Shown: positions 3,922 to 56,026 of the stretch, one piece after another
Position numbering within the stretch: the first letter of the stretch is position 1
Layout of the letters: each line of letters starts with the position of its first letter
From: a phage
Sequence record: PZ242158.1
DNA: 64,000 bases
Reading direction: 5' to 3' (one strand)
Notes under the pieces: model-generated
Seen by the model: only the letters and a program-made list of their open reading frames with translations
Database searches by the model: none
What the model was told of the DNA's origin: nothing
Position numbers and translations under genes: made by a program

Positions 3922-4257
3922 ATGGTAACATTGGAAAGACGTAAAGCTATCGCCGCCACACTGGCAGACATCTTTTGGGATTGCAATTTAAAAGATACCC
4001 GATATTGTGGCGCATCTGTAGATGCATTATTCCCACGGCCCACTATTGTTGCAATGGGAAACCTGTCAAACGTGGTGTATGGAGCATGGGACAAAGAAGG
4101 TGGATTTTATATCTGGCAACCTGACTACGGGACCTGGAAAGAGGTAAGGGGTGCGGATGACTTTGGGCCTGCAGTTGCCAAAACGATGGATGGCTGGCAA
4201 ATTTATGTTGGAAATGACATGAAGCTGAAAGGCGAGATTGTTTACTGGTTACCTTAA
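3922..4257 (+). CDS. hypothetical protein
   Basis: ORF 111 aa. Confidence 0.45.
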   Translation: MVTLERRKAIAATLADIFWDCNLKDTRYCGASVDALFPRPTIVAMGNLSNVVYGAWDKEGGFYIWQPDYGTWKEVRGADDFGPAVAKTMDGWQIYVGNDMKLKGEIVYWLP

Positions 4258-4277
4258 GAAAGTGCAGGAGATAAAGT

Positions 4278-4523
4278 ATGAACAAAGGGTGGACATTTGT
4301 AGACGGCGTTGAAAACATGCCTCTAGGAAAGTATATTGTAGCCATGGCAGATGAGAATGGTAAGGTAGATTTCGGAGCTTGCGAGATTGTTCTTGCAGGA
4401 TCTGGTGACCATGTGCACAAAACTGGGATAATTAACGGTCATTTCTACTTTGATTACAACCCTGTTGTGGCGTATATGGCTATGCCAGAATTCGAGTTCC
4501 CAAAGGAGGGTGCGGATGTTTAA
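4278..4523 (+). CDS. hypothetical protein
   Basis: ORF 81 aa with GGAG RBS. Confidence 0.45.
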   Translation: MNKGWTFVDGVENMPLGKYIVAMADENGKVDFGACEIVLAGSGDHVHKTGIINGHFYFDYNPVVAYMAMPEFEFPKEGADV

Positions 4524-4713
4524 GCTTAAATCTGCATGGAACATCGCTGTGGGAGACGAGATCCGCATCCCAGGCGGAAAGACAATCATGAAGATATCTC
4601 GTATCGAGTACGAAGGTGATCGTGTATTCCACATCTTTGCAGAAGATGGTCGAGAAATTTATATACAGGCAGGTTCTCACATTTATATCCGTAAGAAAGG
4701 GGACGACAAATGA
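4516..4713 (+). CDS. hypothetical small protein
   Basis: ATG preceded by AGGAGGG; overlaps upstream stop. Confidence 0.4.
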   Translation: MFKLKSAWNIAVGDEIRIPGGKTIMKISRIEYEGDRVFHIFAEDGREIYIQAGSHIYIRKKGDDK

Positions 4714-5039
4714 CAGAGATCATCATTTCAACTGCAGGGTATGTGTTCCTGACAATCATTGCACTGACTATTTTGGTTACAGTGTATGGGTTTGTTATCC
4801 TTCCTATCCTTGAGACATTTAGTTTGTGTCGGTGTTGGAGAAAAGCTTACGGGCCACAACCGTGGAAGGACTGGCCTCACCTGGTGCGCTTAGCGTTCTC
4901 TTATGCTTACGATCACTCTAGCAGTGCATGCATAACCGGATACCACGCCCACAATTGGAGCTGGGAAGGGTTGAGGAAGTGGAATGTTACAAAGACTATA
5001 CCTCTCCGCATGTATAAACCTAAAAACAAAGATAGCTGA
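4710..5039 (+). CDS. hypothetical membrane protein
   Basis: Two hydrophobic segments near N-terminus; ATGA start/stop overlap with upstream gene. Confidence 0.45.
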   Translation: MTEIIISTAGYVFLTIIALTILVTVYGFVILPILETFSLCRCWRKAYGPQPWKDWPHLVRLAFSYAYDHSSSACITGYHAHNWSWEGLRKWNVTKTIPLRMYKPKNKDS

Positions 5040-10770: not shown

Positions 10771-11142
10771 ATGGAATTTATTATTTTGGCTGTAGTAGTT
10801 GCCTTGTTCAACGCCTGGATCGCTGGCAAGATGGGTAGATCCGCTTTTTTATGGTTTATTATATCTATTTTCCTGGGGGTGGTTGCAACTATTGTACTTG
10901 TTATCCTTGCAATTGTTGACAAGGGGAATAATAGAAAGGGTAAAGTATTTTCAGACCTGTACGACGCTCAAACATTTGTCAACGCCTACTACAGCGATCT
11001 TCCAGTCTCCCTACGTTGCAGCCTTGCACAACAGGTTTTCGATGAAGCTAAAACCAGAGATCACGCCCATGAGATTTGTTTAACTGAGGCGGATCGCCTA
11101 TTTGAGAGGAATAGAAAATATGTGGACCAGCCGTTTAAATAA
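10771..11142 (+). CDS. hypothetical membrane protein (two predicted TM helices)
   Basis: Hydrophobic N-terminal half. Confidence 0.45.
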   Translation: MEFIILAVVVALFNAWIAGKMGRSAFLWFIISIFLGVVATIVLVILAIVDKGNNRKGKVFSDLYDAQTFVNAYYSDLPVSLRCSLAQQVFDEAKTRDHAHEICLTEADRLFERNRKYVDQPFK

Positions 11143-17191: not shown

Positions 17192-17625
17192 TCCCCTCTT
17201 TGTCAAGTGCTGCATGAAAAAATTTACAAGCTGGTATGGTAGCATTTTTGCGGCCTTGTTTACATTCAGGAGTGTATGTATAATCCTTGTTGTGTGGGCG
17301 TTTATACGTCTGGACGGTCAGAAGTCTGCAGGTTAATATCTAATCTATTGGCTGCTAACTATATCCCACACAAATGATAAGAAATATAATTGTTATATGC
17401 GTAAACTGTAACTCATGTTATCAATCCCTGTATGTATCGCCAGTGGTGCGCATAATGGGTATTATGTTAAATTGCCCGTAATGATAACAGTTCTCACAAT
17501 GATAGGTATTCTCATTCATCCACACAAAATAGGTTGCAAATGTTGTGCCACTGTGTGAACGGCCTGGCCTATTAATTTCTCTCACTGCCTCGATATTTGA
17601 GAATTGTTATAAGAATGAGAAGTAT
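17192..17625. repeat. 434-bp direct repeat, copy 1
   Basis: Identical to 17752-18185 by visual comparison. Confidence 0.85.
17256..17284 (+). promoter_or_regulatory. sigma70-like promoter inside repeat copy 1 (TTGTTT-17-TATAAT)
   Basis: Perfect -10 hexamer with 17-bp spacer; no ORF downstream. Confidence 0.4.
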
Positions 17626-17751: not shown

Positions 17752-18185
17752 TCCCCTCTTTGTCAAGTGCTGCATGAAAAAATTTACAAGCTGGTATGGT
17801 AGCATTTTTGCGGCCTTGTTTACATTCAGGAGTGTATGTATAATCCTTGTTGTGTGGGCGTTTATACGTCTGGACGGTCAGAAGTCTGCAGGTTAATATC
17901 TAATCTATTGGCTGCTAACTATATCCCACACAAATGATAAGAAATATAATTGTTATATGCGTAAACTGTAACTCATGTTATCAATCCCTGTATGTATCGC
18001 CAGTGGTGCGCATAATGGGTATTATGTTAAATTGCCCGTAATGATAACAGTTCTCACAATGATAGGTATTCTCATTCATCCACACAAAATAGGTTGCAAA
18101 TGTTGTGCCACTGTGTGAACGGCCTGGCCTATTAATTTCTCTCACTGCCTCGATATTTGAGAATTGTTATAAGAATGAGAAGTAT
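17752..18185. repeat. 434-bp direct repeat, copy 2
   Basis: Identical to copy 1; 126-bp unique spacer between copies. Confidence 0.85.
17816..17844 (+). promoter_or_regulatory. sigma70-like promoter inside repeat copy 2 (TTGTTT-17-TATAAT)
   Basis: Same as copy 1. Confidence 0.4.
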
Positions 18186-27966: not shown

Positions 27967-28437
27967 CTACTTAAATAGTAGTTCAAAATAGTGCAAAATT
28001 AACAGAAGTTGAACTACACCTAGTGCAACGGCGAGTATGTTAATCTTAGAATCGAAAAACTTCTTAACTTTTACTCTAAAAGGTTCCTTAATGTCCTTTA
28101 CGATCCTATCTATAGATGACCTCATATCTCTGATTACCATCCTGAACATTAAAGACGGATGCTCCCCCATCTCTGTAACGGAATCGAAAACATACTCTCT
28201 TCGGTCATAAGGGCCGCCAGCTCTGCGTATTAACCTCTCCACAGAGACCTCGAACGTCACACCTGTAACGTAATCATCTATAACAAGTCGTGACGGGTCT
28301 TTACCTTTACTATCAAGAGGTATCAAAGTTATCTTTCCAGATTTTGTTAAAATTTCCCCTTTTTCAAGCAAGGTGTACCAATGCTCTCTGCCAAGACTGT
28401 TGAGGCACGTTTTTACATATTTAACAAACATCGTCAC
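27967..28437 (-). CDS. hypothetical protein with C-terminal TM segment
   Basis: ORF 156 aa. Confidence 0.45.
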   Translation of the reverse strand: MTMFVKYVKTCLNSLGREHWYTLLEKGEILTKSGKITLIPLDSKGKDPSRLVIDDYVTGVTFEVSVERLIRRAGGPYDRREYVFDSVTEMGEHPSLMFRMVIRDMRSSIDRIVKDIKEPFRVKVKKFFDSKINILAVALGVVQLLLILHYFELLFK

Positions 28438-28637
28438 CCCTCACCGCACGTCTGATATAACCACTCTATAAAATCTTGATACCATTCGCCCTCTGAGCGC
28501 TCCGTAGGCCAATAATCTTCACCCTCTCGTGCATTAAAATCTGAGTATTCAACTTTCCACTCCTTTACCAGCTCGTGGAGAAGGTTTTCAGCCTGCTCTA
28601 AAGATTTATTTTTTACCATTGCTGTCTCCTTTTTCAA
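28434..28637 (-). CDS. hypothetical small protein
   Basis: ORF 67 aa. Confidence 0.4.
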   Translation of the reverse strand: MKKETAMVKNKSLEQAENLLHELVKEWKVEYSDFNAREGEDYWPTERSEGEWYQDFIEWLYQTCGEG

Positions 28638-28838
28638 GATAGTTATACATCAGAACTGCACCACCTAAGATGGCTACCAGTAACAATATCCCAGATAGCA
28701 TCTCAATAAACATGGCTTGAAACACTGGAAGGTCTCCCTAAATTAACGCACCATTTTAAATACATGCTCTTTTCCCATAAAGGTGCCTGGCTAAGATCTG
28801 CGTAGAACGCAATCTCTTTAAGAACAGTATAGATAGTT

Positions 28839-29066
28839 TTAGGTGCGGTCTCCATCCCTACTCTCCTTCCTGATATTCTTGTAGTAATCAACTAGGCACA
28901 TTATTACGATGAAGATAACAACAGGCCAAAAAGGTGCAGCAGTGATGATGGTGATAAAATCATCAAACTTCACCCTTCGTCTGGACACGATGCATACACC
29001 TGTCAAGAATACCGCTGTTATAACGGACATTACCAGGTAACCTATTAGCACAACATTTATACTCAT
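28839..29066 (-). CDS. hypothetical small membrane protein
   Basis: Two hydrophobic helices. Confidence 0.4.
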   Translation of the reverse strand: MSINVVLIGYLVMSVITAVFLTGVCIVSRRRVKFDDFITIITAAPFWPVVIFIVIMCLVDYYKNIRKESRDGDRT

Positions 29067-29096
29067 TGGTCCTCCCTTTGTAGGTTAAATTGTATA

Positions 29097-29630
29097 CTAC
29101 AAATGGTCGCTGAGGGTGTCAAGAAAATTATCCCGTTCTTTCTCAGAGTTTTCATGTGTGTAGCTGAAAAACATATCGAGAATAACCTTATTGATATATT
29201 CCAGCTCCTCTGTGTTCAGATGCTTAGCAGGATCTACAATGACATCCCAAATATCATACAGACCACACTCATGATACCCATAACGCCACTCAATTGTCAA
29301 GCTGAGCGGCAAATCTTTACCTTCACAAACAACCTTCCATCTACATATGTTGGTATCTGGTCGTACCTGTGCACGGTACACCTGCACAAAATCCAATTTG
29401 AATTTGAGGTACTCGTCATACAATTTAAGCACAAAGCTCTCGATTTGTGGAGACACTTTTGCAGCAAACTGTGCGTATTTGTACTTGCACTGAATGATCT
29501 TTCTGCGTTTTGCAGTTAAATTTTTTGCCGCCAGTTGTTCTTCAGTGTATCTCCACCTACGATCAACAAACGCAACAGGGTCTTTGTCCCCATAGAGGTC
29601 TTCCCAGTTAATCAGAAGCATACCTGTCAC
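29097..29630 (-). CDS. hypothetical protein
   Basis: ORF 177 aa. Confidence 0.5.
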   Translation of the reverse strand: MTGMLLINWEDLYGDKDPVAFVDRRWRYTEEQLAAKNLTAKRRKIIQCKYKYAQFAAKVSPQIESFVLKLYDEYLKFKLDFVQVYRAQVRPDTNICRWKVVCEGKDLPLSLTIEWRYGYHECGLYDIWDVIVDPAKHLNTEELEYINKVILDMFFSYTHENSEKERDNFLDTLSDHL

Positions 29631-49438: not shown

Positions 49439-50574
49439 ATTGCTCCAACATTTCTAAGAACGTTAACAAGTTTTGTTTGATCATTGAATGTTCGCTTCAT
49501 ATACAAACAGTCAAAAATTATACTCATCCATTGACCTACGGAAATTCTACGATCAACACCATTGAAGTCAGTATACTTAACAACACCTTTCGGGAACCAC
49601 TTCTTGTACTGATCAATAATAGCCACCCACATCTCCTTTGGAGTGCTGCACTGAGACAGTAGGTAGAATGCTGAGGCATCCCCGAACTTACCCTTACCGA
49701 TAAGTCCTTGATACGGCTTGATATTGTCAGCAGAGTCACCACACAGCATTTGGTATCCGAAGAACAGCATTCCGTAACCACCAACCTCTCCATTAGGCTT
49801 CATGAAGATGTTCCCCATACCGTTATCGATCAGCATAGGGGTTTCCCTTACAAAATCTCCCTTATCGTTTCGCATGGGATCGAACACAAGCCCCGGTAGT
49901 GTTCTTTGGTCCTTATCAATAGAGATAATAAACTTGTTGAACTTACCTGTTTTTTGGTAGTGGTTCCAACCTTCAAATTGCTGAATAGCTAACCAGTCGT
50001 CAGCCTCGATACCGTTGATCACTTGAGCATTATACTGCTTTTGGAGATACTGTCTTGCATCTCCAAGCAGCAGTGGTCGAAGAGTATTGTTACGGTTGGC
50101 CTTGTATCTTTCCGGCATTGGAAGATCTAGTCTGAAGTTACCTGTGCCTCCCAACACCCCGACACATCGCTCTTCCGGAATACCCAGATAGTTAAGAACT
50201 GCATTAGCTTTACACTTAATTGTGTGTAAGCAGTTCTCTACAGGATCAGGGGTTTGGATATCCAAGACATCGAAATCTTCGCGTGTCCACGGAATAAACT
50301 CCTTTCCAGCCTTTTTACATGCGGCTTCACGGTTGGTATTCTCAGCTTTTAACCAACCACCAACGGTGTTCTTCTGCCTCCCCCAGAACTCTGTTCGTGT
50401 TTTAAACATCTTCTTGCGTCCGGAGGCTTTGTGTGTTACCTCAATTGTCCTTTTTTCACAACTTGCCGCAGCTTGATATGCAACCTGGTCGAAGTCATAA
50501 TAAACTATAGCGTCAGGTTCGAGAAGATCAGCAAGACAATCTACAGATTCAATAAGTGGATATTCTCTACTCAA
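49435..50574 (-). CDS. 5'-3' exonuclease / flap endonuclease (T4 RNase H-like)
   Basis: YYDFDQVAYQA, GIEADDWLAI, IISIDKDQ, GDSADNIKPY resemble FEN-family motifs. Confidence 0.6.
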   Translation of the reverse strand: MSREYPLIESVDCLADLLEPDAIVYYDFDQVAYQAAASCEKRTIEVTHKASGRKKMFKTRTEFWGRQKNTVGGWLKAENTNREAACKKAGKEFIPWTREDFDVLDIQTPDPVENCLHTIKCKANAVLNYLGIPEERCVGVLGGTGNFRLDLPMPERYKANRNNTLRPLLLGDARQYLQKQYNAQVINGIEADDWLAIQQFEGWNHYQKTGKFNKFIISIDKDQRTLPGLVFDPMRNDKGDFVRETPMLIDNGMGNIFMKPNGEVGGYGMLFFGYQMLCGDSADNIKPYQGLIGKGKFGDASAFYLLSQCSTPKEMWVAIIDQYKKWFPKGVVKYTDFNGVDRRISVGQWMSIIFDCLYMKRTFNDQTKLVNVLRNVGAI

Positions 50575-50875
50575 AGTCCCTCCTGTTAGTTACTCTGCAA
50601 GATGGTTGGATGCTGTAATGAAATGCATCATCACTTTCTGCAATAAGTGACTCAACATCCCAATACTTTTCAAAAAGGAACGGATTAGACCCCCAGTGGT
50701 GGGTTATTTTCATCAAGGAGTCTGGTATCAGATAGCCACAGATCTTAATTACATCGCCAGGTTGAATTGTGTTTTCATGAAGGTTGCTTGCCTTCTTCAG
50801 AATCATACCTTTGTGATTCTCATTTGCATACAACTGGACGATATCTTTATCTTCAACAATAAAAATTTTAAGCAT
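50567..50875 (-). CDS. hypothetical protein
   Basis: ORF 102 aa. Confidence 0.45.
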   Translation of the reverse strand: MLKIFIVEDKDIVQLYANENHKGMILKKASNLHENTIQPGDVIKICGYLIPDSLMKITHHWGSNPFLFEKYWDVESLIAESDDAFHYSIQPSCRVTNRRDFE

Positions 50876-50934
50876 ACCTAGTTCTCCTAGTTAATAAATA
50901 GTTAACTGATAATATCAGATCAGAGACTCATTTG

Positions 50935-51228
50935 TCAAGACTTTTTAGTCTTTCTTGGAGAGCTTTTTGTTGATCTTTTTCTTTTGTGGTAAATTCCAAG
51001 TGCAGCATTTTCTTGGGCACACGTTTTAACGGTTTTTAGATCAGAGCTTTCAGCTTTAGGTAGATTAAGCTCCCACCAACCCAACCAGTAAAGCTCTGAT
51101 TCCGACAGCTGCTCAGATTCAGACTTCCGATACAAGGCTTGCATACCTCTGATGATATCGTCCAGAGGTGTATCGAATACAAAAGCTGTCTTATCAAATT
51201 TCTCTTTTGCAGGTTTCTTAGCCATCAA
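50935..51228 (-). CDS. hypothetical basic protein
   Basis: ORF 97 aa. Confidence 0.45.
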   Translation of the reverse strand: MMAKKPAKEKFDKTAFVFDTPLDDIIRGMQALYRKSESEQLSESELYWLGWWELNLPKAESSDLKTVKTCAQENAALGIYHKRKRSTKSSPRKTKKS

Positions 51229-51682
51229 GGTAACCCTCTATCCACGAAAAGTCAGTCTTCCATTCTGGAACTTTACTAAGCTCACGCCACTCTGCAAAGC
51301 AGTCTCGGTAATAGGCCTCTGCCATACCCTTGGTGATCTTATTCACCTTAGCCAACTGATTAACTGCCTGAGCATACTTTCCACGGATATTTGCTAACCC
51401 AGGATGCACAGATGTGTGACAATCTGGGCACAACGCTATCAGTCCGACAAGCCGGATCACTCCCTCTTCGAAAGTGTAAAGTTCATGACACTCCACTGGA
51501 TGTTTGCTGCCTTTACCTCCGCACACCTCACAAGTGTAGTTGGCTTCTCTGTAACACTTCTTACGGATCTTATCCCACTCACTCTTCTTCACAGCGTTTC
51601 GGAGGTTATTATACCAAGCTGTTTCTGGGATCAGTTGCACAATAAGCCTGCGTTCAGACTTCATTAAACGTCCGTCTTCCAC
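51218..51682 (-). CDS. zinc-finger/HNH-like protein
   Basis: CEVCGG..H..ECHEL..CPDCHTSVH. Confidence 0.4.
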   Translation of the reverse strand: MEDGRLMKSERRLIVQLIPETAWYNNLRNAVKKSEWDKIRKKCYREANYTCEVCGGKGSKHPVECHELYTFEEGVIRLVGLIALCPDCHTSVHPGLANIRGKYAQAVNQLAKVNKITKGMAEAYYRDCFAEWRELSKVPEWKTDFSWIEGYLDG

Positions 51683-51691
51683 GTATCCTCC

Positions 51692-51898
51692 TCATTCAAA
51701 GAAATGGGTGCGAGGGCAGGAACCTGCCTCACCTTGTTTCACAAGCTCGTAGAGCTCACCTTGGCTTGTCTCATAAAGGCAAATACGTTTACCATTGTCC
51801 CGATATACATCGACAAGATACGCTGTTTCACCTGCAAACACGACACCACAGGACAGACATGCTGCCATGAACAAAATTGCCAACAGAAAATCTTTCAT
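51692..51898 (-). CDS. small secreted Cys-containing protein
   Basis: Signal peptide-like MKDFLLAILFMAACLSCGVVFA. Confidence 0.45.
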   Translation of the reverse strand: MKDFLLAILFMAACLSCGVVFAGETAYLVDVYRDNGKRICLYETSQGELYELVKQGEAGSCPRTHFFE

Positions 51899-51961
51899 GG
51901 TTAAACCCTCCTAAACATTTTATGAGGTAACAATACCACGTCCGTGTGGTTATGTCAATGA

Positions 51962-52723
51962 TCAATCCTCAACACAAGGTCTTGGATAGCCTCTGGATAA
52001 CTTCCACTCAGTTAGTGACATCCCTCCGTAGAGACAGTTTACTTCCCAAGACTTTCTTGCACAAACTGCCTCCCACCACGGATTTAGCCACTTCCTGTCG
52101 TTGAAGCATCTTAAGTTTCTTCCTTTGTTATCTCGTGCCCTCCAACAGGTATCTTTCTTAGACCAATCAATACCTGGCAGGATATTATTCTTGTGCGGGT
52201 TTGGAACTATCTTTAAAGCCTCTTCCGGGTTGGCTATTGACCATTCAACCCTAGACTTAGCCTCTTCGAAAGTGTCAAAATCTCCCAACCTAACATTTAC
52301 CCTATTTATCCTTCTACTTGCCCTCCACTTACCCTCTCTTTTCAGCCATACCACACCAGTCACTGTAGAGGTGTTATTGCTTTGCACATTTTCCAAGGCT
52401 CTCTTACAGTAGTTATCCCAAGGCTTCAACATTTGAAGGTTTTCTATCTTGTCTACAGGCACTCCGTTAGTAGAATTTTTCTTAGAGACGATATGATCGA
52501 TATGCCAAGTATCTGTGACACATCCGTAAAACATGTCAAAAATTTCCCTATGTCTGCCACGTTTAACATTTGTCAGCTTATTGTACACTTGGAAATATCC
52601 AGTCTTTTTGTTGTAGTGTCCAGCCCTATTTCCATTCCTACTGTAGCCAGGTTTCCAAAAGATTAGATCACCATCCTTGTACCAATAAGGATAGTGATCA
52701 TTAAAAAAGAAATGTATCTTCAT
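51962..52723 (-). CDS. HNH homing endonuclease with AP2 DNA-binding domain
   Basis: HIDH..N..N HNH core and AP2-like GVVWLKREGKWRASRRI...LGDFDTFEEA. Confidence 0.7.
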   Translation of the reverse strand: MKIHFFFNDHYPYWYKDGDLIFWKPGYSRNGNRAGHYNKKTGYFQVYNKLTNVKRGRHREIFDMFYGCVTDTWHIDHIVSKKNSTNGVPVDKIENLQMLKPWDNYCKRALENVQSNNTSTVTGVVWLKREGKWRASRRINRVNVRLGDFDTFEEAKSRVEWSIANPEEALKIVPNPHKNNILPGIDWSKKDTCWRARDNKGRNLRCFNDRKWLNPWWEAVCARKSWEVNCLYGGMSLTEWKLSRGYPRPCVED

Positions 52724-52748
52724 ATCTCAACACACCTCTGGTGTAGAA

Positions 52749-52770
52749 AGGTAGGCGAGTGGCCTACCTT
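52749..52770 (-). terminator. hairpin terminator (GGTAGGC-GAGT-GGCCTACC + T-tract)
   Basis: Stem-loop with flanking T/A tracts, potentially bidirectional. Confidence 0.5.
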
Positions 52771-52777
52771 TTGATCA

Positions 52778-53275
52778 TTAATCCAGAACAACACCTCCAA
52801 ACTCTACAAATTTCTTAAGCAACTTGTCAATGGTTTTTGGATTTTGGTCGTACTGGTTGTATGGGAACGAAGCCCAAATATTTGAGGTCTTACGTATAGC
52901 AGATTTAATATGACCGTTATCTATGTCTTCAAGTGCTTTACGTTCCCTGATCAACTGGATTGCCCACTTATCCTGGCTATCTGGTCCAAAATCCGGCAAC
53001 TTAAGCTGTTTTTTGTAGTGTTCCCAGTATTTGACAAGAAATTGATATTTACCGCAGGCTGTAGTTCTTTGCCCTTTTGAGTTAAACACTTTACCAGGGC
53101 GACCGTTTGCAAAAGGGTGCGTAGAAAAATCTGTAAAGATTTCAGGTTTTCCGTCCATCCCGTATGCTACAACATCGTATCCTCCACATTTGGTGGCAGG
53201 GTGGGTTGTTGTTCCCTCTGCCCAGCCAATAAGATCCAAGAAAGCTTTTCGTTGAACATTTTTATCAAGTTTCAT
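52778..53275 (-). CDS. endolysin, lambda R-type lytic transglycosylase
   Basis: NVQRKAFLDLIGWAEGT...CGKYQFL...WASFP closely parallels lambda R. Confidence 0.8.
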   Translation of the reverse strand: MKLDKNVQRKAFLDLIGWAEGTTTHPATKCGGYDVVAYGMDGKPEIFTDFSTHPFANGRPGKVFNSKGQRTTACGKYQFLVKYWEHYKKQLKLPDFGPDSQDKWAIQLIRERKALEDIDNGHIKSAIRKTSNIWASFPYNQYDQNPKTIDKLLKKFVEFGGVVLD

Positions 53276-53402
53276 TTTTCATACTCTCCAGTTTACTCAT
53301 AACTAACCAGATCAACAACACTACACAGTGTGGTTGTTATGTAGGTACCAATTGAAAAACCATCATTCGATTGGCTACCGTTACCTACTAAACCTTCCTA
53401 CA

Positions 53403-54686
53403 TCATTCCAGAACCTCCCAAGTGTCTGGGTCAACATTTCGGACGCAGATACCGACAGGGAATTGGTAGTTGTTGTCTTCTGTCCTTGATTGATATTTGA
53501 AGGTGACAAACTTGCCGATCATTTCCTGCATCCTGTCATAGCTACGCTCCTCGTGCGTGCCTTTCATCTTCATTTTAACAATAACACCTTCCTTGTCAAC
53601 ACAGATAAGAACACCTTCATCATTCTTATCTTTCTCAACGTCAATAACTTTCACCTCTGCGTCGTTGAACTTTTTCCATTTCAATGCTTCAGATGTTCGC
53701 TGACCGTACTCGTATTTACCGCAGAAATTACGCATGATAGTACCTTCATATCCTTCGGACATGAATATACCAACAGATTCTTCGCAATGATCAACTGTGT
53801 ACGCAAGCTCTGCGTCAACAACCTTGATATGGTCAAGCATCAGAGTGGTAACGGTATCCTCTGCATCCATAAGATCCTTGCAGCGTCCAGACTCTGTTTC
53901 TGGATCCCACCACACCTTGTCGCTAGGAATATCAAAAATGTGATACTCCAGATCGTAGCTACAGTACCCACCGTAACGCAAATCATCACGAACAGGCTCA
54001 ACATCGACAGGAATATCTACCTTGTTGAAGTTTTTGTATGTTGATAAGCCTGCCTTAATTGCTGCATGACGGCGTTTTTTATCTGCCTCATAGTCTTTAT
54101 CGATCTCGGCCTGAATCTCTTCCTGTGTGCGCCACCGTTTAGCAAGAGACACTATTTTCTGCAAAGGAAGACCATGAATGTATAGTTCCCCATCAAGTTG
54201 TTTAATCCCAGTGGTAGAATGGAAAGAACGAAGTTGCTCTAAAAGCTTTCCTTGAATAGGGTAGGACTTATTACCACGGGAAATAAATTTAGGCTCACCA
54301 TTTTGGAAAACAACAAGCAGACGAAGGCCATCTAACTTACGCAAGATCCAGCAAGGTAATTTAAGTGCCTTGCCACGCTTCAGGTAGTCATGCACCAGCA
54401 TGGGTAAAAGATCAACACCCTGCTCGCAATCTTCCATGTTTTCAACATACCCCAGACGGACTTGTTTTTCCCACTTGCTGATAGCCTCAAGCTCGGCCTG
54501 TTGCTCAGCTGTAGTCTCGTTGGCACGACCTACGTTCTTAGGTGTGCATACCGTCTCTTTGTACTGCAGTTTACCATCAAGCTTGCCAAACTCTACGATA
54601 ACCTTATCACCATCCGTGAATACTTTCCACTGTTGGTAGCTGCCATCTTTATTCAGTGCGTACAGTGTTGTTTTGATCTGATGCAT
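53403..54686 (-). CDS. ATP-dependent DNA ligase
   Basis: Motif I RKLDGLR (KxDGxR), motif III DGELYIHG, downstream EG and K-x-K motifs. Confidence 0.7.
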   Translation of the reverse strand: MHQIKTTLYALNKDGSYQQWKVFTDGDKVIVEFGKLDGKLQYKETVCTPKNVGRANETTAEQQAELEAISKWEKQVRLGYVENMEDCEQGVDLLPMLVHDYLKRGKALKLPCWILRKLDGLRLLVVFQNGEPKFISRGNKSYPIQGKLLEQLRSFHSTTGIKQLDGELYIHGLPLQKIVSLAKRWRTQEEIQAEIDKDYEADKKRRHAAIKAGLSTYKNFNKVDIPVDVEPVRDDLRYGGYCSYDLEYHIFDIPSDKVWWDPETESGRCKDLMDAEDTVTTLMLDHIKVVDAELAYTVDHCEESVGIFMSEGYEGTIMRNFCGKYEYGQRTSEALKWKKFNDAEVKVIDVEKDKNDEGVLICVDKEGVIVKMKMKGTHEERSYDRMQEMIGKFVTFKYQSRTEDNNYQFPVGICVRNVDPDTWEVLE

Positions 54687-54955
54687 TACTCGGCCTCTTC
54701 CTTAAAAATTTTAAACATCTCTTCTTTACTCATTACCAACCAGTCTCCCATAAAGTCAACTAGCCAATCTCCCTGGTACAAGACAAGGTTACCAAAAGGC
54801 TCGACAAGCTCACACATGCGACGAAGATCTCTGGTCCGAACAGGTGACGATGTAAACACACCTGTATCAATCCACCGTTGCAGATCAGATACTGATGAAG
54901 AGCTTCCGTCAAACTGATGTGCTTCTACAGGTTTAGCAAGATTAAATAACGGCAT
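54686..54955 (-). CDS. hypothetical protein
   Basis: ORF 89 aa. Confidence 0.45.
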   Translation of the reverse strand: MPLFNLAKPVEAHQFDGSSSSVSDLQRWIDTGVFTSSPVRTRDLRRMCELVEPFGNLVLYQGDWLVDFMGDWLVMSKEEMFKIFKEEAE

Positions 54956-55250
54956 TGCAGTCCTCCTTCTGTAGTAGGTCTTTTATAGGATAAACAAGTA
55001 AGTGTGGGTCGTAATAACGTATAGTCCTATTCTGCCACACTATGAACTTTATTACAACCAAATTTACAATATCTTTATCACCATGTAGCCCAACACACAC
55101 ATTTGTCCATATTTTGTGGTTGAAGACCTTGCTATCGATGTAGATTTTAGTGTCAAACTTATCTTCCATTCTACCAATAAGTTTGATCAGCTCCTTCATC
55201 TGGTCGCCAAACACAGCATCTTTTTCAAGATCTCTGGAATGCTTGTACAT
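54942..55250 (-). CDS. hypothetical protein
   Basis: ORF 102 aa. Confidence 0.45.
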   Translation of the reverse strand: MYKHSRDLEKDAVFGDQMKELIKLIGRMEDKFDTKIYIDSKVFNHKIWTNVCVGLHGDKDIVNLVVIKFIVWQNRTIRYYDPHLLVYPIKDLLQKEDCNAVI

Positions 55251-55288
55251 AACTGACTACCTCACTGCATACTTTCCATAATAAGTAA

Positions 55289-55306
55289 AGCCGGGTAATC
55301 CCGGCT
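55289..55306 (-). terminator. hairpin terminator (AGCCGGG-TAAT-CCCGGCT)
   Basis: GC stem in intergenic gap. Confidence 0.45.
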
Positions 55307-55312
55307 ATGTTG

Positions 55313-56026
55313 TTAAATATACTCTGTTACATCCTTGAAGCTCGAAGGCTTCATAATCTTACCTTTACTGTCAAGGAATATAATAACTTTATTGCCGTTG
55401 TAGAACTCCTCTTTAGCAACGAAACCTTCGTAGCGACCACCAAAACGACGCTCAAGATCTTTAATCTCCAACTCGATGAGTTGTTCAGCAGGCATATCTG
55501 CACTGGCACCGTGTGAATGCCGTAGATGGTTGATCCGTGCAAACTTACTGTCATTAGATTTTAGAACCTTCCGCATCATCCCACACACATCCCCGCTAAG
55601 CTGGAACAGCAAAGCTGTTGATAACTCCGCTAGTCGGTAAGCTGACGCTCTTTGCTTGGATGTGTTTTTCGCAGCGATCAGTGTATCATAGAACTCACCG
55701 ATCTTGAACTTAAGACCTCGCGGATTATCAAACAGGTTTGACCACTTTTCGTGGTTATCATTAACAAGATAAGCTGCATAACTTGTGACAACGTGAAGAT
55801 CGCAGGCCTCTTTTAGCAGGTGATCTCCACCATCACCTTTCTCCAGCTCTTCCAAAACTTCATTGAACTCTTCCTCAATGAAGCTAAGCTGTAATTCGAA
55901 TGGTGTGTATGATTTTTTCACTTTAGCTGCCACACGGTTCCAGTTTTCCACCCAGTTGGCAGACCAAAGGTAGTTTTCAGGCTGGGACAGTTTTTCCAGG
56001 TTGTCGATCAGTTTAGTATTCAGCAT
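55313..56026 (-). CDS. hypothetical protein, possibly MazG-like nucleotide pyrophosphohydrolase fold
   Basis: EEEFNEVLEEL...LLKEACDL pattern reminiscent of MazG E..E...E..D motif; weak. Confidence 0.3.
   Translation of the reverse strand: MLNTKLIDNLEKLSQPENYLWSANWVENWNRVAAKVKKSYTPFELQLSFIEEEFNEVLEELEKGDGGDHLLKEACDLHVVTSYAAYLVNDNHEKWSNLFDNPRGLKFKIGEFYDTLIAAKNTSKQRASAYRLAELSTALLFQLSGDVCGMMRKVLKSNDSKFARINHLRHSHGASADMPAEQLIELEIKDLERRFGGRYEGFVAKEEFYNGNKVIIFLDSKGKIMKPSSFKDVTEYI

Follow-up and report, generated by a model that had tools for sequence, protein, structure and literature searches.

The window analyzed here, a 64,000-nucleotide stretch of phage DNA (sequence record PZ242158.1), raises the question of why an endolysin gene should lie in a replication operon, 10,044 bp from the i-spanin gene and on the opposite strand to it, and of which gene codes for the holin. 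The initial annotation offered three readings of this dispersal: rearrangement by endonuclease activity, a holin beyond the window, or one among the small membrane proteins. The source is a Vequintavirus (rV5-like) coliphage, and 124 Vequintavirus records match the endolysin region at 95 to 99% nucleotide identity. The scattered lysis genes and the lack of an adjacent holin are a fixed and already published layout of this genus. The explanation that we favor, and regard as probable, is that this is the published rV5-like layout with a GH104 endolysin whose allele has been swapped, probably by homing-endonuclease gene conversion. The finding is ordinary overall, with one modest new detail, namely that a divergent endolysin allele is strictly linked to a neighboring HNH gene. 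The genes and sites at issue are as follows.

51218..51682, minus strand: second HNH endonuclease gene (rV5 ORF91); PHROG 5200, E = 2.4e-72
51692..51898, minus strand: homolog of rV5 ORF90, 68 aa; poorly conserved signal-peptide-like N terminus and a beta domain of ~45 aa containing two invariant Cys
51930..51958, minus strand: sigma-70-like promoter, TTGACA-17-TATTGT with TG (P90 in the rV5 record); the cassette described below ends immediately upstream
51962..52723, minus strand: putative free-standing AP2-HNH homing-endonuclease gene, 253 aa; PHROG 99, E = 1.7e-19
52778..53275, minus strand: endolysin gene, 165 aa; ATG start, GGAGAG Shine-Dalgarno-like sequence upstream
53403..54686, minus strand: ATP-dependent DNA ligase gene, 427 aa, the upstream neighbor; Pfam DNA_ligase_A_M and OB_2; PHROG 114, E = 2.7e-83
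63319..63717, plus strand: i-spanin gene, 132 aa, N-terminal TMD (residues 14-32); PHROG 4297 Rz-like spanin, E = 1.1e-47
63714..64000, plus strand: o-spanin gene, lipobox LLLCGC; 95 codons, stop codon beyond the window end

The endolysin, the spanins and the genus layout

The endolysin aligns by phmmer with lambda lysozyme in the PDB (1AM7/3D3D, E = 6.5e-35; query residues 4-163 against residues 3-153 of the chain) and matches PHROG 90 'endolysin' (3e-51), bearing out the lambda-R-type enzyme proposed initially. Glu20, in the motif WAEGT, aligns with the catalytic Glu of lambda (E19, in WSEGT), and this residue is invariant in 6/6 aligned sequences, across four phage alleles and lambda R. The profile searches agreed only in part, as Pfam-A (including Phage_lysozyme) and NCBIfam gave no match at E ≤ 1 for either the window protein or the rV5 allele; this blank is a matter of model coverage and not evidence against endolysin homology, and the assignment is based on the PDB and PHROG matches. 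Near homologs carry the NCBI name 'glycoside hydrolase family 104 protein', and a hydropathy scan found no signal peptide, SAR domain or hydrophobic segment. Judged by its sequence, the product of 52778-53275 is a soluble lytic transglycosylase of the lambda R/P2 K type (GH104), an endolysin, with predicted muralytic activity and transglycosylase chemistry (1,6-anhydro-MurNAc product). LysECP26, an rV5-type allele, has been purified, is muralytic, and lyses permeabilized Gram-negative cells (PMC9728275).

The spanin pair, reported initially as lying 10 kb off on the other strand, is equally recognizable and has the makeup of a two-component system: an i-spanin with an N-terminal TMD and a lipobox lipoprotein whose gene overlaps that of the i-spanin by 4 nt. 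The same pair is annotated in LL12 as gp66 (I-spanin) and gp65 (O-spanin, 288 nt). The observation that no holin-like gene sits beside either the endolysin or the spanins also stands: the endolysin has the ligase, the HNH gene and ORF90 as neighbors on the minus strand, and within the window no TMD protein flanks the spanin genes.

This layout alone is not new, having been reported in 2013 (rV5) and 2019 (LL12) and discussed in 2020 at the level of the subfamily. In rV5 the lysin is gp89 and the putative holin is the unlinked gp129, 'as in phage T4' (PMC3606486), and the LL12 announcement names endolysin gp90 and spanins gp66/gp65, with a holin not positively identified (PMC6658697). The spanins adjoin TerL in rV5, PVP-SE1 and CB7, a linkage that is thus found in further genera of this subfamily as well (PMC7344957). 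The initial annotation had missed this prior publication of the whole arrangement (PMC3606486; PMC6658697). The annotations of LL12 and rV5 have the same gene order as the window, and a synteny comparison of relatives recovered both the ligase-lysin-ORF90 order and the spanin-TerL linkage in rV5, LL12 and ~80 other genomes without the extra HNH gene. The ligase neighborhoods of Mydovirus (Mydo), Seunavirus (SSE121) and Henunavirus (Hena1) have no lysin annotated there, and so there is no subfamily-wide "endolysin slot."

Within the operon the order is ligase, endolysin, 253-aa HNH, and the second HNH gene further downstream is present in every relative examined, outside the variable cassette, with 98.6 to 100% identity in rV5 and FV3. 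Promoter and terminator scans returned 11 promoter sites versus 9.9 expected from shuffles, which is not above chance, and thus say nothing reliable on timing; the 127-nt region upstream of the lysin gene folds no better than shuffles (z = -0.44). In the account that we favor, any transcription of the long replication and nucleotide-metabolism operon would also yield the endolysin, which could accumulate harmlessly in the cytoplasm because it has no export signal; a separate holin would set the timing of lysis, and disruption of the envelope would be completed by the spanins encoded next to the terminase gene.

A divergent endolysin allele linked to an HNH gene

Two further features describe the segment in which the window departs from its relatives.

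51968..53233: divergent cassette, replaced relative to rV5/LL12; endolysin codons 15-165, hairpin spacer and HNH ORF
52747..52771, minus strand: 10-bp GC-rich hairpin right after the endolysin stop, then UUUCU

Comparison by blastn with LL12, rV5, FV3 and HMD-6 places the cassette breakpoints at 53233/53234 and 51967/51968, with the 5' crossover after endolysin codon 14; the 3' junction lies at GATTGATCA, a shared sequence immediately ahead of the promoter of ORF90. Identity between the window endolysin and the rV5/LL12 allele is ~55%, whereas the flanks are 93 to 99% identical, and ORF90 and the second HNH protein match those of rV5/LL12 at 98.5% and 100%, respectively. The GC content of the cassette (0.42 versus 0.43 for the flanks) is not distinctive. 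The HNH gene is inserted after the lysin stop codon and ahead of the P90 promoter, and 20 of ~120 genomes carry it; one identical set of 20 records has both the 165-aa allele (at least 99%) and the 253-aa HNH (at least 97%), and the phage collection contained no endolysin with identity between 60% and 99% to the window allele. DrSchubert has a cassette that is 96 to 100% identical, yet its ligase is of the rV5 type (41 to 76% identical). The 57-nt spacer between the lysin and HNH genes has an MFE of -20.8 kcal/mol (z = -4.0; 0/200 shuffles fold as well), and the hairpin at 52747..52771 is a possible attenuator or terminator before the HNH gene.

The HNH protein matches Pfam AP2 below the cut-off (E = 2.5e-4, 21.7 bits versus 33.3) and has no Pfam HNH match, although a 77% identical homolog from metagenomic lineage L010 has weak matches to both HNH (E = 0.0036) and AP2. 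The motif HIDH...ENL...N is visible in the window protein, and its putative assignment as an HNH endonuclease rests on this motif and the PHROGs. An Rfam scan of 50500-55500 at E ≤ 1 found no family, group I introns included, and the ORF lies between two complete genes, so that the HNH gene is free-standing and not carried by an intron or intein.

Other HNH genes occupy the same locus in relatives. An FV3-type HNH gene follows a chimeric lysin gene, 93 to 100% rV5-like for ~330 nt and 52 to 65% from there on; the 'rV5_ev' records also carry this HNH gene, and a literature search found no source paper for them. An HMD-6-type HNH gene lies upstream of a fourth lysin allele in 4 records, and JEP1 has a cut-down remnant of it. 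The pairing of the window recurs in other phage lineages as well: metagenomic lineage L010/L016 has an overlapping pair of lysin (77.6%) and HNH (77.5%) genes in a different context, and in L013 the lysin gene (80%) is followed by an HNH remnant without residues ~59-198.

The most likely cause of the cassette pattern is gene conversion driven by a homing endonuclease, which is a known process. The HNH would cut an HNH-less allele during co-infection, and repair would copy the HNH gene plus the adjacent cleavage-immune endolysin sequence; a 1.27-kb block (codons 15-165 and the AP2-HNH gene) would in this way have replaced the rV5-type sequence at the same site. We infer both this cleavage specificity and this direction of transfer. 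It is quite possible, although we advance it only tentatively, that the AP2-HNH family homes on GH104 endolysin genes, in which case the lysin and HNH genes would form a self-mobilizing cassette that overwrites the endolysin of a co-infecting phage and crosses unrelated lineages. Part of this reading, and held just as tentatively, is that the Vequintavirus locus would have been invaded at least three times by different HNHs, each fixing its own cleavage-immune allele.

The linkage and the breakpoints are correlational, and ordinary recombination of a mosaic segment could yield both. The lysin-HNH block would then be a passive segment moved by homologous recombination, with the HNH gene either a passenger or aimed elsewhere. 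The ligase lends substance to this alternative, being dimorphic within the genus (the window form and the rV5 type share 56% aa identity) without an HNH gene beside it and recombining independently of the lysin, which indicates that mosaicism occurs here without an obvious endonuclease. We nevertheless consider passive exchange unlikely, as three HNH genes each adjoin a different lysin allele in perfect linkage (20/20 for the window type, 11/11 for the FV3 type, and 4/4 for the HMD-6 type, the last taken from feature annotations under the HNH matches, the lysin allele itself not being searched). In addition, the FV3 divergence is limited to the ~150 nt nearest the HNH gene, which is the co-conversion gradient expected of homing, and the lysin-HNH pair moves as a unit into unrelated contexts.

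Gene conversion in place differs from the rearrangement by endonuclease activity proposed initially, in which a homing endonuclease would have split up an ancestral lysis cassette and transferred the endolysin gene to the replication operon. HNH genes are indeed abundant around the endolysin (51218-51682 and 51962-52723), and in L016 a span of 3 kb encodes the endolysin together with the i-spanin and an o-spanin-like lipoprotein, so that lysis-gene linkage varies in the wider group. Break-up of a cassette is nonetheless very improbable, given that the ligase-lysin-ORF90 order is identical in the ~80 genomes without the cassette HNH and that spanins beside TerL are conserved across genera of the subfamily; the lack of an annotated lysin at the ligase in Mydo, SSE121 and Hena1 fits a genus-level acquisition and not a recent endonuclease-mediated move. 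The adjacent HNH gene goes with in-place replacement of the endolysin allele instead of with its relocation. Just as improbable is that the lysozyme is a virion-associated or entry enzyme and not the lysis endolysin, since its unusual place among replication genes and its weak matches to PHROG 17230 'tail fiber protein/lysozyme' and a baseplate-hub chain (8KEA) are set against its being a stand-alone full-length lambda R homolog, its P2-like and lambdoid homologs that are known endolysins encoded beside holins, the reporting of no other endolysin candidate for rV5 or LL12 bar a gp25-like baseplate protein, and the lysis of permeabilized cells by LysECP26.

With its three HNHs and four endolysin alleles, the locus offers a clear natural case of allele replacement linked to endonucleases and could be a tractable model for the shuffling of essential phage genes by homing endonucleases. 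A further consequence is that the "rV5-type endolysin" of enzybiotic work is several alleles that are ~50 to 70% identical and not one protein.

Candidates for the holin

This genus, which is widely used in therapy and biocontrol, has only a putative holin, and the window holds the one published candidate.

28839..29066, minus strand: homolog of rV5 gp129, the published putative holin; 75 aa, two TMDs, charged C-terminal tail, own RBS
29094-29122: sigma-70-like promoter before the gp129 homolog

Among the 15 TMD proteins counted in rV5, gp129 was the only one given two TMDs by both TMHMM and Phobius, and with its two TMDs and charged C terminus it is the only published holin candidate for that phage (PMC3606486). 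The window homolog is 88% identical to it, with TMDs at about residues 3-21 and 40-58 in a hydropathy scan. That scan of the small ORFs recovered a two-TMD protein that fits the published gp129, in line with the initial suggestion of a holin among the small membrane proteins, but the suggestion found no counterpart in a holin family: the homolog matches only PHROG 10061 (function unknown), has no Pfam or NCBIfam holin family, and lacks a dual-start motif. The basic tail is kept in all homologs, remote ones included, and the loop and TMD2 are invariant. All homologs, again including the remote ones, are encoded in the same PhoH/ClpP-side position; the remote match P0158 keeps this synteny and is not beside a lysin gene, and in no relative examined does a gp129 homolog adjoin the lysin, so that there is no guilt-by-association evidence for a holin role. 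Only Vequintavirus-like relatives emerged from a word-indexed search and from a profile search run in full against 1.84 billion representatives, and nothing about the sigma-70-like promoter upstream points to late timing. Phage 21-type holins with two TMDs are pinholins, and a pinholin would be unable to let a soluble endolysin out. We infer that the gp129 homolog at 28839-29066 is the best available holin candidate.

It is somewhat unlikely, but a prospect to be taken seriously, that the true holin is a different small membrane protein, neither gp129 nor ORF90, encoded either in the window or in the ~70 kb outside it. About a dozen small TMD proteins are encoded on the coding strands according to the hydropathy scan, the two-TMD ORF 10771-11142 and ORF 4710-5039 being examples, and ten of them searched against Pfam, PHROGs and NCBIfam matched no holin family. 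The size of the TMD complement in rV5 and the fact that the LL12 annotators named no holin are also compatible with such a protein. The agreement of TMHMM and Phobius on gp129 alone speaks against it, as does the retention of the gp129 architecture (two TMDs, invariant loop and TMD2, basic tail) in remote relatives. No holin was found among the endolysin neighbors in the window, LL12, rV5, FV3 and HMD-6, and in L016 the spanins are the only TMD proteins encoded within 10 kb on either side of the spanin and lysin genes, a region that also lacks homologs of gp129 and ORF90.

ORF90 is the sole hydrophobic protein near the endolysin, and it could be the missing lysis partner, whether as a holin with one TMD, as an antiholin like RI of T4, or as some other regulator. 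It has its own promoter, is 97 to 98.5% conserved across all four lysin alleles, and remains directly downstream of the lysin gene in L013, although the pair sits elsewhere in the operon there. We consider such a role quite improbable, however, because conservation is lowest in the hydrophobic N terminus, at the end of which are signal-peptidase-like sites (VFA/G, AWS/G), and the conserved part, the ~45-aa beta domain with its two invariant Cys, fits a secreted periplasmic protein; nor did the LL12 annotators call it a holin. A homolog search matched only Vequintavirus-like contigs, and a Foldseek search of the PDB with the confident AlphaFold model (pLDDT 82) was uninformative, returning nothing below E = 0.05. 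By these sequence features ORF90 looks like a secreted protein and not a holin, and one possibility is that this always-adjacent periplasmic mini-protein works with the endolysin in a way not yet described, either to control lysis or in superinfection exclusion.

Comparison with known systems

The candidate holin, at 75 aa with two TMDs and a basic charged tail, resembles the class II holin S68 of phage 21, but it differs in having neither holin-family similarity nor a dual start and in never being encoded beside the endolysin in the relatives examined. Holins of the phage 21 type are pinholins paired with SAR endolysins, whereas the window endolysin is predicted to be soluble.

Free-standing homing endonucleases with co-conversion of flanking markers are documented in the seg and mob genes of T4, and in ICP1 there are 'nuclease genes at boundaries of genetic exchange' (PMC10448857; PMC2790892; PMC2988022). 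The HNH gene of the window is like these in lying beside an essential gene, in its presence/absence polymorphism among near-identical genomes, in the sharply bounded divergent tract that adjoins it, and in having decayed copies in relatives. It is unlike them in that an endolysin is co-converted, cleavage is putative, and the tract is a xenologous allele (~55%) and not a few SNPs.

The closest relatives of the endolysin by location are rV5 gp89, LL12 gp90 and LysECP26, which share with it the locus, the flanks, the first 14 codons and the enzyme family. They differ beyond codon 14, where amino acid identity is ~55%, in length (156 versus 165 aa), and in having no HNH gene after them. The rV5 allele is nearer to lysins of lambdoid and Jersey-like siphophages (63 to 71%), whereas the window allele is nearer to GH104 proteins of P2-like phages and enterobacterial prophages (57 to 64%). 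Homology to lambda R and P2 K is full length, with 47 to 48% identity to the former and 57% to the latter; the window protein has the size of P2 K (165 aa) and shares with both the conserved catalytic Glu and the build of a single soluble domain with no export signal. In lambda and P2, however, the gene is part of a holin-endolysin-spanin cassette, whereas the window gene follows a ligase in a replication operon and, in departure from the canonical contiguous cassette, is adjoined by neither holin nor spanins.

In this respect T4 is the better match, as its endolysin, holin and spanin genes (e, t and pseT.3/pseT.2) are likewise scattered, a comparison made by the rV5 authors themselves (PMC3606486), and its i- and o-spanin genes also abut (PMC7344957). 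The components of T4 are different: the endolysin is a muramidase of family GH24, and holin T, which has the regulators RI and RIII, belongs to class III and has one TMD. No homologs of the T4 endolysin, holin T or RI/RIII were found here. On established lysis biology, lysis would follow the same three-step scheme as in lambda, with the genes scattered as they are in T4.

Endolysin gene and its setting in the genus

The endolysin gene lies on the minus strand between the ligase and HNH genes, exactly where the initial annotation placed it. This gene, its neighbors, and the spanin genes are as follows.

52778-53275, minus: endolysin, 165 aa, ATG start, GGAGAG ribosome-binding sequence upstream
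53403-54686, minus: ATP-dependent DNA ligase, 427 aa, upstream neighbor of the endolysin gene (Pfam DNA_ligase_A_M and OB_2; PHROG 114, E=2.7e-83)
51962-52723, minus: HNH protein, 253 aa, downstream neighbor of the endolysin gene (PHROG 99, E=1.7e-19; weak AP2 domain)
63319-63717, plus: i-spanin (PHROG 4297 Rz-like spanin, E=1.1e-47; N-terminal transmembrane domain [TMD])
63714 to the window edge, plus: o-spanin, lipobox LLLCGC

The lambda-R-type assignment stands: lambda lysozyme (1AM7, 3D3D) matches over the full protein length in a phmmer search of the PDB (1AM7, E=6.5e-35), PHROG 90 'endolysin' matches at 3e-51, and the catalytic Glu19 of lambda R has its aligned counterpart in Glu20 of the motif WAEGT. 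Neither this protein nor the rV5 allele has a match in Pfam-A or NCBIfam, which we read as a probable gap in the models, since NCBI names close homologs 'glycoside hydrolase family 104 protein.' A hydropathy scan finds no hydrophobic segment in the endolysin, which is therefore a soluble cytoplasmic enzyme in need of a holin. The 3'-terminal part of the ligase gene contains a near-consensus sigma-70-like promoter (53572-53599, minus; TTGACA-16-TAAAAT with an upstream TG, 11/12 matches), ∼300 nt ahead of the start of the endolysin gene; the DNA around the endolysin has no excess of promoter-like sites over shuffled sequences.

On the opposite strand, 10,044 bp separate the spanin pair from the endolysin gene, in agreement with the ∼10 kb first reported, and no holin gene adjoins either, the endolysin neighbors being ligase and HNH and the ORF upstream of the spanins lacking a TMD. 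The initial observation thus holds in every part. A seven-tRNA cluster (62085-62897) includes a 99-nt tRNA-like gene (62554-62652) with a 4-base 'anticodon,' atcc, whose LL12 equivalent is annotated as tRNA-Lys of inconsistent isotype.

The region shares 95 to 99% nucleotide identity with 124 records of Vequintavirus (rV5-like) phages, and a synteny comparison shows the same gene order and spanin placement in LL12 and rV5. Both are annotated with Sir2-like and MazG-like genes, two small ORFs, ligase, lysozyme, ORF90 (a 68-aa membrane protein), HNH (ORF91), exonuclease, and further genes, with the i-/o-spanins beside the large terminase on the opposite strand. In rV5, gp89 was termed 'an obvious lysin,' no holin homolog was found, and genes 82-163 were assigned to a single transcription unit (PMC3606486); in CB7, rV5, and PVP-SE1 the spanins adjoin the terminase and are not in a lysis cassette (PMC7344957). 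The rV5-type allele LysECP26 was purified in earlier work and is able to lyse permeabilized Gram-negative cells (PMC9728275). Both the gene layout and the lack of a holin are therefore on record already, and the finding is ordinary.

The initial interpretation holds only in part: its suggestion of a lysis module scattered by endonuclease activity is not supported, because the layout is the same in ∼80 genomes that have the rV5-type allele but lack an extra HNH gene. In Mydo, SSE121, and Hena1, from other genera of this subfamily, the annotations show no lysin beside the ligase, which argues that the lambda-R-type gene at the ligase site characterizes the genus as a whole and did not move there recently.

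Approximately 19 MG0656xx records (e.g., MG065662 and MG065635), labeled 'Campylobacter phage' with Campylobacter jejuni as host, are nearly identical (96 to 100%) to this rV5-like coliphage DNA and are probably mislabeled or contaminant assemblies.

Proposed lysis route and holin candidates

The endolysin gene is in the long replication/nucleotide-metabolism operon, from which the enzyme would be produced in soluble form in the cytoplasm. By analogy with lambda and T4 lysis biology, early synthesis would do no damage, as the inner membrane is a barrier that the enzyme cannot pass. A separately encoded holin would open the membrane, the endolysin would next cleave glycan strands, and the spanin pair encoded beside TerL would then disrupt the outer membrane. 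The resulting freedom from timing constraints would suffice to explain the position of the endolysin gene.

Two hydrophobic proteins bear on the identity of the holin.

28839-29066, minus: homolog of rV5 gp129, putative holin, from a hydropathy scan of all window ORFs
51692-51898: ORF90, the sole hydrophobic protein adjoining the endolysin

The gp129 homolog has 75 aa, shares 88% identity with gp129, and lacks 3 residues of the gp129 tail; its gene has a good ribosome-binding site and an upstream sigma-70-like promoter (TTGACA-17-TAGTAT). We count as holin-compatible the loop and TMD2 (KFDDFITIITAAPFWP), invariant across gp129 homologs, and the basic C-terminal tail, kept even in remote relatives found by profile search. 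Two other features lend no support: the protein matches no holin family, and all homologs, including one remote relative looked up, have the same PhoH/ClpP-side position, none of them beside a lysin. The gp129 homolog is a plausible, unproven candidate, and that it opens the membrane is slightly less likely than not. That another TMD protein is the holin is rather unlikely.

Holin function through a mechanism linked to ORF90 is quite improbable. Conservation in ORF90 is lowest in the N-terminal segment, at the end of which signal-peptidase-like sites occur. The other ∼45 residues, two of them invariant cysteines, hardly vary; their predicted structure is a small beta domain (pLDDT 82), for which no informative structural match was obtained. 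This pattern suggests a secreted periplasmic protein and not a holin. ORF90 may nevertheless be linked functionally to the endolysin, since it is still directly downstream of the lysin in L013, a Vequintavirus-like contig in which the pair is elsewhere in the operon.

The gp129 homolog, with two TMDs, heads a run of membrane-protein genes (27967-29066) that is preceded by two sigma-70-like promoters, is conserved in the distant relative L018, and includes the following.

28606-28725: 39-aa ORF with one TMD
27967-28437: 156-aa 'virion structural protein' with a C-terminal TMD (PHROG 7821)

Elsewhere, the early-gene region has a perfect 300-nt direct repeat (17192-17491 and 17752-18051; 560-nt spacing), by which a 40-aa ORF with a TMD and a 47-aa ORF are each present twice.

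The endolysin-HNH cassette and its counterparts

By tblastn, only 20 phage records have the window endolysin at ≥99% identity and none has a version at 60 to 99%. The common Vequintavirus allele (156 aa; rV5, LL12, Murica, and others) is ∼52 to 55% identical, and P2-type K (57%) scores slightly higher than the rV5 allele (52%). The window HNH is found at ≥97% identity in 20 records (tblastn), exactly those with the 165-aa endolysin allele. The surroundings are near-identical (ORF90, 98.5%; HNH91, 100%; flanks, 93 to 98% in nucleotides). Similarity to LL12, rV5, and FV3 takes in 42 nt at the 5' end of the endolysin gene, ends after codon 14, and restarts at GATTGATCA, directly before the ORF90 promoter; these breakpoints define the divergent block.

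51968-53233: endolysin codons 15-165, a strong-hairpin spacer, and the entire 253-aa HNH ORF

The ligase gene (53403-54686) is dimorphic in the genus, the rV5/DrSchubert type having 56% aa identity to the window type, to which the FV3 and HMD-6 ligases belong (97 to 98%). DrSchubert combines an rV5-type ligase (41 to 76% nucleotide identity to the window) with a cassette 96 to 100% identical, which indicates that the cassette occurs on different backbones and that ligase and cassette alleles recombine independently.

The lysin-HNH pair also forms a unit beyond Vequintavirus. In L010 and L016, metagenomic contigs of a different, related, and uncultured lineage, the lysin (77.6% identical) and HNH (77.5%) overlap by 4 nt, downstream of i-/o-spanin homologs and upstream of an HNH-riddled nrdD. 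In L016 (7361-10498; also in L010), the i-spanin homolog (34% identity) and o-spanin-like lipoprotein (46%), with three genes between, are just upstream of the endolysin and HNH at the start of the operon with the HNH-split nrdD; a search of ±10 kb around the L016 spanin-lysin genes gave no holin candidate with a TMD. In L013, with a different gene order and a lysin 80% identical to that of the window, the lysin is followed by a remnant of the window-type HNH (3992-4304; residues ∼3-58 and ∼199-248 only) and then ORF90. This remnant looks like the decay stage expected of a homing-endonuclease life cycle.

At the endolysin locus, other Vequintavirus genomes offer independent parallels with different HNH genes. 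FV3-type genomes have a 227-aa HNH overlapping the lysin 3' end, and their lysin is 93 to 100% rV5-like for ∼330 nt, then 52 to 65% in the ∼150 nt nearest the HNH, a segment 80 to 85% like the HMD-6 allele; this chimeric lysin and the FV3-type HNH occur together in all 11 records. HMD-6-type genomes (4 records) have a third HNH, of 238 aa, upstream of a fourth lysin allele, and a truncated remnant of it lies beside the lysin of phage JEP1 (1750-2040). The JEP1 and L013 remnants, short ORFs or noncoding sequence, come from two different endolysin-linked HNH genes and illustrate how such elements decay. No intron RNA family was detected in the endolysin region, and the HNH genes are therefore free-standing.

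The rV5_ev records LR597647, LR694165, LR694610, and LR694611 (ev147, ev156, ev158, and ev168) have the FV3-type HNH and chimeric lysin, both absent from the rV5 reference record. Should these phages be derivatives of rV5 evolved in the laboratory, they would show an HNH segment being acquired; a literature search found no source paper for them.

Ordinary recombination of a mosaic block is a less likely source of the allele pattern; in its favor, the neighboring ligase comes in two forms (56% aa identity) although no HNH gene adjoins it. From the likeness to free-standing homing endonucleases of T4 and ICP1, we conclude instead that the Vequintavirus endolysin locus is probably a homing-endonuclease hot spot, and that the window allele, one of at least four, would have been brought in together with its HNH. 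We infer the HNH cleavage site, immunity of the linked allele, and direction of transfer. The endonuclease-linked endolysin allele would be a new, if modest, case of a process already known: for the T4 and ICP1 enzymes, co-conversion of flanking markers is on record and exchanged segments are bounded by nuclease genes (PMC2790892, PMC2988022, PMC10448857), and the Vequintavirus lysin-HNH pattern matches theirs.
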